DNA of 64,000 nt from a virus. The position numbers and the translations under genes are program-made. The stretch covers positions 18,336 to 82,335 of the IMG/VR virus record IMGVR_UViG_3300050821_010487. One strand, 5' to 3'. Each line of letters starts with the position of its first letter. The first letter of the stretch is position 1. Below are positions 12,201 through 15,216 of the stretch, piece after piece. The notes beneath the pieces are model-generated. The model did no database searches and was not told the DNA's origin. It worked only from the letters and a program-made list of their open reading frames with translations.

Positions 12201-15191
12201 TGGAAGCACCAGCTCAGTGAGCAGTTCGGAGGCAAGCGCGGCAAGGCCTTGTCCCGGGCGGTTACCAAGGCCGGTCACGATGCGATCGTCACGCATGACG
12301 AGGACGGATCGACCCGCGAGATCGTTGACCTGACGGGCTTCCACCGGCAGGGGACGGCCGAGCCGGACCCTGAGCCCGTGGCGGTGGTCGCCCATTTCGA
12401 GGAAGGGGGACATCGCCCCGTCGGCTTTCCGATCTACCGGGGGCTTATTGTCGGCCCCGAGCACCGGGACAACCCACTAGCTGGTGTCCGCACGAACGGG
12501 ATAGGCGAACACTGGACCGATGATGAAGAGGAGGCCCGCAACTGGGCTACGCCTGGTCACGACATCGGCAACCCGTTGCACGAACACGGCATCGGTGTGG
12601 TGCTGCACGCTGATCATCCCGGCGAAGAGCATGAGATGCCTGACTGGAGGAAAGCTGCCACGGGGGTGTATGACGAGGCCGAGGATGATGATGACGGCTG
12701 GGGAACCGAGCGCGAGATAGCCCTGGACGATGGTGCTCCGATCCATGTTCACCACGTGTCTTACGGTCCTGATTTCGAGACCGAACACCCGGTACACCTG
12801 CACGCCGAGGCTGCTGCTGGCGGTAATCCGGCGCGGCTTTGCGCCCACTTCGAGGCCACCGCCACCGAGCACACCGGGATGACTCACGACGAGCTGGACC
12901 AGCACCTGGAGACCTGGTTCCGCCCGCAGCGCCTGGATGCCGAACGGACTACGCATCCCCGCAGCGGCTACCAGGTCGAGACGGGCACTCAGCTCCGGCT
13001 GCACCAGCCGTCCCGCGACGACGAGGGCCCCGGCGAGGACGGCGTCGAAGGCCCGGTTCACTTCGAGGTCTGGGACCACGGCGACCCGCACACCCAGACC
13101 GGGCTGCAGGGGCTGCAGTACCCGAAGAAGACCGGTGAGACCCGGCCGGTCGAGCACGTCTACCGGGGGGTGTCCGCAGACGAGTGGCGGCAGGCCCAGC
13201 AGCGCGGCCACGTCCAGTCCGACGGCCGGGGCACGATCGGCTCCTGGGAGGGCACCAACGCCGACGTGGACCCGAAAGCGGCGGTGTCCTACCTGCCCCG
13301 CAACGCCACCGGCCACATCCTCAAGATCCGGGTGCACCCAGACGACGGCTGGTTCACCCACAGCGCAGACAGCTATGTCCGCACCCGCCACCCGGTCCCG
13401 CTGGACCGGGTGGAGGCGGTCTCCCCGGAGATCACCAAGGGCGGCAAGTACGGCGGCGAGATCACCGTCGGCAAGACCGCTTCGCTGCAGGCGACGGCCG
13501 CGCTGGAGAACCCCTACACCGGTCATGGTGTCTGGTACCACGGCACCCAGGCCGACCCGGAGGACATCAGGCAGCACGGCCTGTCGAACGCGGGCGAGCA
13601 TGCCACCGGCCGGTACCAGGTCCCGGAGAGCGAGTCCGACGATTCCGGCCACTGGAACGCGATGGTTGGCAGTCACTTCACCGCCGACCATGCCATCGCG
13701 GGGGAGTTCGCCAAAGGTGAGCACGAAGGCAGCGACAACGAGGGCTACTGGGGCGAGGACGAGCCTGAGCACCACGGGATCATCCACGCCTACGTGCACC
13801 TGAAGAACCCGAAGGTCTATTCCTCCGAGCACGACATGGACCACGAGGCCTACGAGCACGAGTTCGCCGCGGGCAATCACCCCTCGAACCATCATCCAGG
13901 CCTCGGCCGGGAAGGTGACGCCGACGAGCTGGCCGACGCCGAGGAGATGTGGCCGCACGCGCACCGGATCGCCCGGGATTACGGGCACAGCGAGATCCCC
14001 CGGAGCGTCTACGGCCATCACATGTCACCGTTCGAGCAGCACCCGATGCGGACCGCCTGGCTGAACACACACCCGGACAAGGTGGGGATCGCCGACCGGT
14101 TCAAGCAGCGGCTGATGGACGCCGGCCACGACGGCATCGTCTACGGCAACGAGTACGAGCGCAGCAACCGCGGTGCCGCCGCCAATTCCTCAGTCGTCGC
14201 CTTCCATCCGCATCAGGTCGAGATCACTCAGCACCACCACGTCGATGAGCCCCACGACCCGGACCCTGAGCCCAGCGGGCACCTGGCGGCCCTGGCCTCG
14301 CTGCCGGACGCCCCGGAGCAGAAGCCCGCGGTGGTGCAGCACTTCGGGGTGCAGGACGATCACGAGGAGTGGGAGCGCCGGGTGACGCCGCCGTACACCG
14401 GCCAGCCGCTGTTCCACGGCACCCGCTCGATCCTGGAGCCTGATGAGGAGCTGACCCACGAGCAGGCGGCGGAGCACGCGAACAACACCGACATCCATGC
14501 CGAGCCTTACGTGCACGCGACCAGCAGCGGCGCCGAGGCGCACGACTGGGGCAAGCGTGCCGATTCCTCTCAGGCCGCCTGGCGGATGGAGGAGCTGGGC
14601 CGCGCCCGCGATCTGCGGCCGGGCGAGAACGAGGATCAGGCCTATCCCTCGCGGGTCTACCAGGTGCATCCTCTCGGCGATGTCGAGCCCGACCCGCACA
14701 AGGAAGGCGCTTCCTACCGCTCGGCCAGCCCAATGCGGGTGATCAAGGAGGTGCGCCCGTTGTCCTGCTACGCCGAGGAGTGCGACAACGCCGAGCACTG
14801 GCCGGATCACCCGCACTACGAGCACCTGGCCCGGGACGAGGATGACGAGGACATGAATCACTACGCGGCGGCCCAGCCGGGTCAGTACATCGCTCAGCCT
14901 CCCCGCACCGCGGCCGTGGTCGCCCACTTCGACGCCGGGGCCCTGAGCGCCTCTGAGAGCCCCGGGTTCGCCCGGGGGGTCCTGGAGGGCATGCCGGCTC
15001 TCCACCACGCCGTGGCGGGCAGCCTGGAGGCCCTGGCGGGGAGTTTTGCGGAGTCCCCGGTGCACCCGCACCTGGTGGACCAGCTCATCGACATGGCGAG
15101 CGCGGCCCGCTCCGCGGAGAGCCACGCCAGGGACCTGGTGGCCCAGTTGCCGGCCGCAGAAGGTGTGTGCGAGCCAGCCCCAAAAGCGTGA
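9210..15191 (+). CDS. Giant polyvalent protein A (about 8 ADP-ribosyltransferase-fold domains incl. one Arr-like, DnaJ-type Zn finger, ParB, GNAT)
   Basis: 1993 aa; ART first-strand motifs LWRG, YFHIT, MHRG, YAHNT, IYRG, VYRG, WYHGT, LFHGT; IEGHHR (ParB); GKGYASALM (GNAT); CxxCxGxG repeats. Confidence 0.8.
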   Translation: MDLLDHFSRDTGFLAIVEAMGTSYRLWRGEGPHDQKPLSDEHAGRWFTPDRLTAEDYAYKSGGHLLHLDVTEADKEHITKPDSTWPSVVNGDASTIHVSPELAARSEHHPGGCPSCDPGHDETHRHQREWLKSQAAAEPARYFHITSPGNRAGIQHRGLVPAEDLHEDEPGESGGGDASSTWFHVLHKAPEHPRRDVWELTHPHLYDLDEDSNFENGASNPFVRTTRVDPDHLRLVHEGAVSRGTSLEAAARPGRGEKVCPCCQGEGEHGDGSECDPCDGQGIVHSNEPDRYCPGQPQPRRRHWREGAAVDDEKSPDLLEHFQVAAMAWENQSPRDKTQYTPISVRHAGFAGLVGDSEYDRELREDTGEERAEDGHFDEDLYDDTSPEPTHEEKAHYDEHDEWPDSFYERHDQAYEQAVSQRKKAAEEEDTPDHEDEGLMHFVREHGGNTDLWKKHGEFGPVDIKHQPVYATQSHVAKEHIERYQGDRQAPSHAESLHGDRSHVGYLGDKHPLFVTHEGRVHTIEGHHRVATDMAMGRHETLGWHFNLDKHPRLADRWEEDPEDWEGKIAEHHQHLQAQGGFEHPLAPGHLGEQGYRVHDENRGFYAERDNWSGHQPQQTWGTLHLHHPDGTAVAHLDYAQVGKDEDPHHEMHVEDLRSGEGGKGYASALMDHVYATHPEPAEVSHSLRTDEGGGWWEHYIAKRPEIAERERRQEEGGEGHEVVAHFEEEAAPAAGPRPAALPSEDWEEHLRKLRYRKRNEPLMHRGMAIELPPEVHDFVHDQCQTRDRQAQAILDHLKSQPLGMHWSTDERVPRFFAGKERKNNLPGSTKVILHAKLPGASDIETDPQKLQEEAVFRHDNWMGGEHEIPMKAGAPVHVTGVTWYGYGNRKRTGHVWGEQHLAVRGGEPEPEIEVVAHFEAEAAHQGPLTMEYAHNTEKAPDMGEIFGQHVEPHGRYMVQREPGDSYGQDPRWVTGTVTFHNPLHVPYGGLASEPTNWKHQLSEQFGGKRGKALSRAVTKAGHDAIVTHDEDGSTREIVDLTGFHRQGTAEPDPEPVAVVAHFEEGGHRPVGFPIYRGLIVGPEHRDNPLAGVRTNGIGEHWTDDEEEARNWATPGHDIGNPLHEHGIGVVLHADHPGEEHEMPDWRKAATGVYDEAEDDDDGWGTEREIALDDGAPIHVHHVSYGPDFETEHPVHLHAEAAAGGNPARLCAHFEATATEHTGMTHDELDQHLETWFRPQRLDAERTTHPRSGYQVETGTQLRLHQPSRDDEGPGEDGVEGPVHFEVWDHGDPHTQTGLQGLQYPKKTGETRPVEHVYRGVSADEWRQAQQRGHVQSDGRGTIGSWEGTNADVDPKAAVSYLPRNATGHILKIRVHPDDGWFTHSADSYVRTRHPVPLDRVEAVSPEITKGGKYGGEITVGKTASLQATAALENPYTGHGVWYHGTQADPEDIRQHGLSNAGEHATGRYQVPESESDDSGHWNAMVGSHFTADHAIAGEFAKGEHEGSDNEGYWGEDEPEHHGIIHAYVHLKNPKVYSSEHDMDHEAYEHEFAAGNHPSNHHPGLGREGDADELADAEEMWPHAHRIARDYGHSEIPRSVYGHHMSPFEQHPMRTAWLNTHPDKVGIADRFKQRLMDAGHDGIVYGNEYERSNRGAAANSSVVAFHPHQVEITQHHHVDEPHDPDPEPSGHLAALASLPDAPEQKPAVVQHFGVQDDHEEWERRVTPPYTGQPLFHGTRSILEPDEELTHEQAAEHANNTDIHAEPYVHATSSGAEAHDWGKRADSSQAAWRMEELGRARDLRPGENEDQAYPSRVYQVHPLGDVEPDPHKEGASYRSASPMRVIKEVRPLSCYAEECDNAEHWPDHPHYEHLARDEDDEDMNHYAAAQPGQYIAQPPRTAAVVAHFDAGALSASESPGFARGVLEGMPALHHAVAGSLEALAGSFAESPVHPHLVDQLIDMASAARSAESHARDLVAQLPAAEGVCEPAPKA

Positions 15192-15216
15192 GCCGCCAGG
15201 CCGAGGCGGCGGTCAC
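15179..15216 (+). other. Candidate programmed -1 ribosomal frameshift signal
   Basis: C_CCA_AAA in frame with ORF A, 6 nt spacer, GCCGCC-N7-GGCGGC hairpin; -1 frame is ORF B. Confidence 0.55.

Follow-up and report, generated by a model that had tools for sequence, protein, structure and literature searches.

A candidate programmed −1 frameshift site at the junction of two polyvalent protein genes in a family of soil phages

Results

Layout of the junction between ORF A and ORF B

The window analyzed here comprises 64,000 nucleotides (nt) of an uncultured soil phage, namely bases 18336–82335 of the 82,335-base pair (bp) virus record IMGVR_UViG_3300050821_010487 (G000), which has a G+C content of 68.7%. 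Two giant open reading frames (ORFs) follow each other on its plus strand, the second one in the −1 frame of the first. ORF A (9210..15191) starts with ATG, is preceded by AGGAGG 8 nt upstream, and encodes a polyvalent protein of 1993 amino acids (aa) with 'VVAHFE' inter-domain linkers; the G+C content at its third codon positions (GC3) is 0.86. The frame of ORF B (15185..20566, plus strand, GC3 0.90) encodes another polyvalent protein, which comprises 1793 aa as a fusion part and 1792 aa when begun at GTG 15188. A first-pass annotation, made from the sequence alone, had proposed that a programmed −1 frameshift joins the two ORFs, and the arrangement of codons on which this proposal was built is indeed present. 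ORF A ends with ...GAG CCA GCC CCA AAA GCG TGA and thus contains the slippery heptamer C_CCA_AAA (15179..15185, plus strand) in phase with its codons, which begin at positions divisible by 3. The 0-frame stop TGA (15189–15191) is located one codon past the heptamer and overlaps GTG 15188, the ORF B start in the database gene call, in the tetranucleotide GTGA (15188..15191, plus strand). The −1 frame is that of ORF B and is open across the slip site, from 14957 through 20566; its first codon after a slip is AGC (Ser). The length given for the fusion was also reproduced (1992 + 1793 = 3785 aa, junction ...EPAPK|SVSRQAEAAV), as was the rarity of the Lys codon AAA, which accounts for 44 of 619 Lys codons (7%).

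The Pro codon of the heptamer is similarly infrequent, CCA making up 80 of 1342 Pro codons (6%), and the combination CCA-AAA is used for only one of the 36 Pro-Lys dipeptides, the slip site itself. High-GC3 ORFs with a total of 19,276 codons contain only two heptamers of the form X_XXY_YYZ (Y = A/T) in frame; one of them is the slip site, three codons from the ORF A stop. When the last 78 residues of ORF A were recoded according to the codon usage of the genome, a canonical heptamer appeared within the last five codons in 3% of the trials. The heptamer at the end of ORF A exceeds what is expected by chance. The other canonical in-frame heptamer, G_GGA_AAG at 37210–37216 (minus strand), lies in the ORF 37413..36955, 86 codons before the stop of this ORF. 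There, the −1 frame stays open for only about 35 codons; the heptamer does not resemble the site of a tail chaperone gene and is probably a chance occurrence.

Both ORF products match the definition of polyvalent proteins given by Iyer et al. (2017; PMC5512222). Domains scoring over the Pfam cut-offs were found in ORF B (GNAT, NUDIX, and 2H phosphoesterase, 2H/LigT), where they are accompanied by [KR]TAA linkers; the ART-PolyVal and Arr-ms matches of ORF A were weak and under the cut-offs. The homologues P0005 to P0010 (P numbers denote database proteins) contain the same modules in shuffled order. Linkers of the 'VVAHFE' type occur in six copies in ORF A according to a pattern search, those of the [KR]TAA type in ORF B and homologues, and the last linker of ORF A, PRTAAVVAHFD, merges both types. 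The two linkers may be processing sites. When the C-terminal 294 residues of ORF A were used as a query, the last ~85 residues proved to be a separate domain. An AlphaFold2 model of this 85-aa segment (predicted local distance difference test score, pLDDT, 84) contains helices at residues 10–37 and 45–70, which form the two-helix hairpin of a C-terminal 'tail' domain (14934..15143, plus strand). The adjoining 15 residues (15144–15188), which hold the slip site, are modeled as a low-confidence coil. When the tail model was compared with PDB and BFVD by Foldseek, only generic helical hairpins were returned, none of them at E ≤ 0.001. The tail is the extreme C-terminus in 12 of 15 database proteins matched by a hidden Markov model of the domain and is internal in P0011 and P0025.

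Conservation of the junction in related phages

Related loci (L numbers) were collected from IMG/VR and JGI metagenomes, with a homologue and subsequently the conserved 708-aa P-loop protein encoded upstream serving as anchors. Conservation of the heptamer had been suggested as a check of the proposed frameshift, and the same layout was recovered in five diverged relatives. In all six junctions, each from a different phage, the tail domain is separated by a short and variable spacer from the in-phase CCCAAA(A/T), after which a single codon, the stop, and a giant −1 ORF follow. The sequence C_CCA_AAA GCG TGA is shared by the window and L031, and the second junction of L004 reads C_CCA_AAA GCC TGA. 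L001 contains C_CCA_AAT CGC TGA, and C_CCA_AAT CGC TAG was identified in both L003 and L010. All junctions with a tail plus P-[K/N] for which DNA is available (6 out of 6) carry the heptamer. Their surroundings are hardly conserved: the 45-nt flanks are 22–56% identical in ungapped comparison, which is near-random, and the tail domains are 19–46% identical at the protein level. Given the protein and the codon usage, a heptamer within the last five codons is expected with 2–4% per locus. The 0-frame residues after Pro vary among the six junctions (K-A vs. N-R), and the first residues of the −1 frame are Ser-[Val/Leu] throughout, with Ser encoded by AGC in three loci and by TCG in three. Since the 0-frame residues change and the Ser-Val/Leu of the −1 frame stays, selection acts on the CCCAAA nucleotides and the −1 reading rather than on the 0-frame peptide. 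In this family of soil phages with genomes of ~160 kb, the putative slip signal is shown to be selected at the nucleotide level.

At the protein level, the tail is combined with a P/G-[K/N] ending in 16 distinct sequences, namely the six heptamer junctions and ten further database proteins (P0014, P0015, P0017–P0020, P0024, P0026, P0029, and P0037). All of them end with P-K-A, P-N-R, P-N-Q, or G-K-A, directly followed by the stop. The ending G-K-A, seen in P0018 (AGKA), would fit a G_GGA_AAA heptamer. In L004 (15540–15640), the tail and C_CCA_AAA close the second polyvalent gene (P0022), which is followed by a third one; the first junction of this locus has its own Shine–Dalgarno (SD) sequence and a second gene in the +1 frame. 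The position of the cassette behind the second polyvalent gene indicates that it is portable within the array.

The junction region had no match in phage and plasmid collections (blastn and tblastn), and the ORF A tail, the ORF B head, and a two-sequence alignment of the tail retrieved nothing from viral or genome contigs. Genome contigs likewise contained no match to the 708-aa protein. A degenerate DNA pattern of the cassette, applied to viral contigs, hit the three contigs already known and otherwise unrelated chance matches only.

A naturally fused homologue

Recoding sites are usually recognized in comparisons by a relative in which the two reading frames are naturally fused in frame. Such a homologue, for which the first-pass annotation had advised to search, was found in P0011 (2425 aa), where the tail is internal. 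P0011 reads ...EAAWNLAESGGPPKVLSRAAAAWAPSKGIFGPTTG, in frame past the tail; the internal tail is followed by PPKVLSRAAAAW and then by the next module. It is collinear with the predicted transframe product of L010, ...EAAWEDSPN|SLARQASTWSPSAGIFGPTTG. P0011 itself was not found in viral contigs. Only P0036 and P0037 were gained when the protein searches with the tail were extended, and no fusion form of more than 3489 aa was found, which is weak evidence.

The existence of a continuous version could also mean that ORF A and ORF B are a single gene, interrupted in the window by an indel from sequencing or assembly or by a mutation that inactivated it recently. The A4 run of the heptamer can gain or lose bases, and the record is a metagenomic fragment with a completeness of ~51% according to CheckV, i.e., about half a genome. 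We consider this explanation very improbable. An indel, which the first-pass annotation had named as a possible source of error, was not seen: Logan contigs of two soil-metagenome runs from different studies cover 15071–15278 and 15132–15407 and match the junction exactly, without any difference or indel. The depth is low (about 3), and the record itself may stem from the sample of either run. Furthermore, the stop is located one codon past the heptamer in six diverged phages, and all 16 sequences that combine the tail with a P/G-[K/N] ending stop there. A recent accident cannot account for a stop at the identical place in six diverged phages.

Transcriptional slippage on the A run, by which mRNAs one base shorter or longer would fuse the frames, leads to the same product as ribosomal slippage; this is the only point in its favor. 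The run consists of just AAAA, or of AAA in the CCCAAAT loci, and known transcriptional slippage in bacteria and phages needs runs of about 8–9 or more identical bases (reviewed in PMC5009743). In addition, the X_XXY_YYZ phasing and the place of the heptamer relative to the stop are typical of ribosomal slippage. An origin of the fused product at the level of transcription is, therefore, an explanation with next to no probability. No RNA sequencing run is listed as containing the stretch.

RNA elements around the heptamer

Besides the heptamer, the first-pass annotation had described a downstream hairpin and an upstream SD-like element, which together were regarded as the classic layout of a bacterial −1 frameshift site. 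This part of the proposal is not supported on two points, the significance of the hairpin and the conservation of the SD-like element. The hairpin GCCGCC-N7-GGCGGC (15192..15210, plus strand) is present, with a 6-bp GC stem 6 nt past the heptamer (arms 15192–15197 and 15205–15210, 7-nt loop), and is extendable to 15188–15216 via GUGA/UCAC, but its stability is no better than that of shuffled sequences (z = −0.68, 40 of 200 shuffles as stable; z = −0.9 in a 40-nt window). An alternative longer stem at 15186–15242 reaches only z = −2.1. The hairpin of the window is ordinary for its G+C content. For the six heptamer loci, z scores were determined over 40 nt from the stop onward. The CCCAAAT loci L001, L003, and L010 have significant stems 6–7 nt past the heptamer with z scores of −5.0, −4.4, and −2.3, respectively; the stem of L001 comprises 12 bp. 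Between L001 and L003, one change in the stem arms from C-G to U-A is compensated as seen by eye (GCCGCC/GGCGGC to GCCGUC/GACGGC). The stems of the CCCAAAA loci (window, L031, and the second junction of L004) are weak or non-significant (z = −0.9, −0.85, and +0.2). In these six cases, slip-site quality and stem strength look like a trade-off: AAT re-pairs worse in the A site and is accompanied by a strong stem, whereas AAA re-pairs perfectly and could do with a weak stem or none.

The upstream element AGGTG is located at 15161–15165, 13 nt before the heptamer. Together with the overlapping GAAGG, it forms an SD-like sequence (15159..15165, plus strand) 13–15 nt before the heptamer and 1–3 nt before GTG 15167. 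No counterpart at a fixed distance was found in the relatives, in which the nearest GGAG-like element, assigned by eye, lies 3 to 22 nt from the heptamer. Because this spacing is not fixed, a role of AGGTG as a conserved stimulator is unsupported.

Initiation signals of ORF B

The weak stems of the CCCAAAA loci, including the non-significant hairpin of the window, are among several observations that weigh against frameshifting and are compatible with separate translation of both genes. The DNA-level comparison covers six junctions only, which is a small sample, and C_CCA_AAT is, to our knowledge, not a well-characterized bacterial slip site. The heptamer is absent from five related junctions, and one of these, L025, belongs to the two relatives that are closest in the upstream 708-aa protein (88%). 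The heptamer-less junctions of L002, L025, and L029 display an ATGA/GTGA overlap; the first junction of L004 and that of L018/L021 have their own SD sequence, with the second gene in the +1 frame. Fusion is hence not obligatory in this phage family, and separate expression of the second gene is clearly viable. In the window, GTGA at 15188–15191 offers ordinary stop–start coupling, the start chosen by the database gene call as well, and the same overlap is present in L031. ORF B may, therefore, also or solely be made separately through this overlap. Finally, all six heptamer junctions contain a −1-frame A/GTG that is preceded by GGAAG(G), overlaps a conserved Trp/Cys codon, and could be a weak independent start of the second ORF. 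With such an upstream start, 'PKS' could be N-terminal coding sequence of the second ORF, and the heptamer could simply result from dual coding.

According to this alternative, ORF A and ORF B give rise to two separate proteins without recoding, and ORF B begins at GTG 15188 by termination–reinitiation or at GTG 15167. CCCAAA(A/T) would be explained by dual coding (P-[K/N] in ORF A and 'PKS' in ORF B) or as an A-rich unstructured patch that aids re-initiation. We regard it as possible, though rather unlikely. The two GTG codons are the only start candidates in the frame of ORF B. The database entry P0004 (1792 aa) begins with VSRQ and thus starts at GTG 15188. GTG 15167 (15167..15169, plus strand) is the first possible start in this frame; its SD spacing is too short and the pairing is weak. 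The calculated pairing with the anti-SD sequence amounts to −2.2 kcal/mol before GTG 15188 and −4.8 kcal/mol before GTG 15167. Internal RTG codons (R = A or G) of ORFs A and B average −4.3 kcal/mol, and 17 well-supported starts of the phage have a mean of −9.5 kcal/mol (range −5.4 to −12.1). Both candidates are hence at or below the internal background, and ORF B lacks a normal ribosome-binding site at either of them. In four of the six heptamer junctions (L001, L003, L010, and the second junction of L004), there is no start codon at the stop at all.

The upstream start deserves separate consideration. A nucleotide motif, GAA-G[GC]N-NNR-TG[GC], encodes E-[GA]-x-[WC] of the tail and was found at 15158–15169 as well as in L001, L002, L003, L004, L010, L025, and L031. 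A purine precedes TG in 9 out of 9 tail-carrying junctions and generates the −1-frame A/GTG over the Trp/Cys codon, which fits separate translation. The gene calls of P0006 and P0009 begin upstream in the −1 frame, too, and the resulting N-termini contain RPKSLSP and APKRLSR. However, the purine-TG is also present at the first junction of L004, where the second ORF is in the +1 frame, so that it need not be a start. The Glu residue of the motif is encoded by the rare codon GAA in 8 out of 8 cases, with a GAG usage of 88%. As GAG would improve the SD sequence, this codon choice argues against selection for initiation at this site. Separate translation also leaves unexplained that the stop always follows one codon past the heptamer and that strong stems lie 6–7 nt downstream in L001, L003, and L010. 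A further argument for fusion, the presence of a linker at the N-terminus of ORF B, was rejected, since the second proteins of the heptamer-less loci begin likewise (MTAQAAAY in L025, (V)TEAARY in L002, and MSSRQAAW in L029).

Genomic context

The 708-aa protein used as an anchor is encoded directly 5′ of the polyvalent genes (6731..8857, plus strand). In the relatives, it is 77–88% identical and the giant ORFs always follow it; one copy of the gene was present in each of the three relative genomes searched. No sequence match was obtained in Pfam, PHROGs, or PDB. Its look-alikes in the ESM Atlas are viral P-loop clusters of the MJ0330_N type, some with Terminase_6N/TerL_ATPase, and on these neighbors alone, without a profile match, the designation as terminase-large-like is a lead only. 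Searches of Pfam, PHROGs, and PDB sequences with the neighboring 1114-aa and 331-aa proteins were without a match. A recombination module at 288–3024, 5′ of the packaging and polyvalent genes, encodes a UvsX-like recombinase, a Holliday junction resolvase, and a Cas4-like exonuclease (PHROG matches), and a uracil-DNA glycosylase family protein is encoded at 22487–23113. No tRNA genes were found in the window.

Complete genomes are available for five relatives (G001–G005, behind L001–L004 and L031). They are 162–166 kb in size, and two of them have direct terminal repeats. Each genome contains a free-standing paralogue of the tail domain. In G000, it is located outside the window at G000:C1:4622–4825 (about 4570–4918), comprises ~115 aa with the N-terminus MTDAATTT, and contains ...LAARLDESPVHETL...; the positions in the relatives are G001:112552–112728, G002:129243–129395, G003:85985–86155, G004:81049–81255, and G005:146799–146993. 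The paralogue could be a docking partner for the tail of the polyvalent protein.

Discussion

A programmed −1 frameshift at C_CCA_AAA, which would yield ORF A and an ORF A–B fusion, is in our view the best explanation of the junction, and we hold it with moderate confidence on the grounds of comparative sequence analysis. Most ribosomes translating ORF A would end at TGA 15189 and release the polyvalent protein of 1993 aa. A minority would slip one base back on C_CCA_AAA, with the Pro-tRNA and the Lys-tRNA leaving CCA and AAA and re-pairing on CCC and AAA. These ribosomes would continue with AGC GTG AGC... through ORF B and produce a fusion of ~3785 aa with the junction ...EPAPK-SVSRQAEAA. The occurrence of the slip and its efficiency are what we infer from the layout; a low efficiency is to be expected because the downstream stem of the window is weak. 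The 'fixed ratio' of short and long forms put forward in the first-pass annotation would follow from the same reasoning and is to be seen with the same reserve. The fusion might serve to dose the enzyme array of ORF B or to co-deliver it with ORF A in the manner of Gag-Pol, and the [KR]-x-A-A-like linker just past the junction might permit later processing. Production of ORF B alone by re-initiation at GTGA might run in parallel, as both routes are compatible with each other.

Beyond the window, the data may be read as a portable recoding cassette at the end of polyvalent cargo genes in ~160-kb soil phages, by which a set fraction of the chains would be extended by the next enzyme array. We judge the case for and against this generalization to be evenly balanced. 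The cassette would consist of the ~85-residue helical-hairpin tail, a short disordered spacer, C_CCA_AAA/T, one codon, and the stop, and it would be a Gag-Pol-like device for dosing or co-delivery of anti-host effectors.

Programmed −1 frameshifting in phages is textbook knowledge for tail chaperones and for a few capsid or tail decorations. Full-text literature searches retrieved no account of frameshifting between polyvalent proteins. If the proposed mechanism is true, it represents a new role of −1 frameshifting, the fusion of two multi-enzyme polyvalent effector arrays, and explains by what means the stoichiometry of very large anti-host cargo, and perhaps its packaging, is controlled by the phages. 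It also bears on annotation. Gene callers split these loci and choose arbitrary starts (15188 here and upstream −1 starts for P0006 and P0009), so that true products of up to ~3,800 residues would be missing from the databases. The conserved combination of tail and heptamer is a simple search key for more cases.

Among the known systems, the −1 frameshifts in the major head (gp5A/gp5B) and major tail genes of Lactobacillus phage A2 (Garcia 2004; Rodriguez 2005; as listed in the review PMC5009743) are comparable. There, too, the frameshift takes place near the 0-frame stop and leads to a short and a C-terminally extended form of one protein. The slip site of phage A2 is reportedly C_CCA_AAA as well, followed by a stem-loop; the stem-loop of the window is without statistical support. 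Moreover, the extension in phage A2 comprises ~85 residues on a structural protein, whereas in the window an enzyme array of 1793 residues would be appended to one of 1993 residues, and there is no sequence relation. Tail assembly chaperones of the lambda gpG/gpGT type likewise combine a downstream −1 ORF with a conserved X_XXY_YYZ heptamer that precedes the stop by a few codons. Even where no strong structure lies downstream, frameshifting of this type can occur at a few per cent. Here, however, other genes are concerned, the junction is located after a terminase-like gene and not before the tape measure gene, and the extension is far longer.

In its logic, the junction resembles retroviral Gag/Gag-Pol, where a frameshift at the end of the upstream polyprotein adds enzymes to a minority of the chains, and recurrent short linkers would point to later processing in the phage proteins as well. 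There is no homology to Gag-Pol, translation is bacterial, and processing and packaging are putative for the phage proteins. The proteins themselves agree with the polyvalent proteins described by Iyer et al. (2017; PMC5512222), which are giant arrays of ART-like, GNAT, NUDIX, 2H, and ParB-like domains in shuffled order beside packaging genes. Neither 'frameshift' nor 'recoding' occurs in that publication, and the helical-hairpin tail with the slip cassette is not part of its account. The paper on the program PRFect (PMC10885494) reports, among its 'false positives', actinophage pairs of MuF-like and VIP2 ADP-ribosyltransferase genes that are predicted to be joined by a frameshift and are fused in other genomes, and considers programmed ribosomal frameshifting possible. 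This suggestion is made in one sentence, without comparative or experimental analysis, and concerns other genes of a different family. The junction finally shares its GTGA (15188–15191) with ATGA/GTGA stop–start coupling, and the same type of overlap occurs without the heptamer in L002, L025, and L029. Unlike in usual coupling, no SD sequence precedes the start, and coupling alone explains neither the heptamer nor the junctions that have no start codon.

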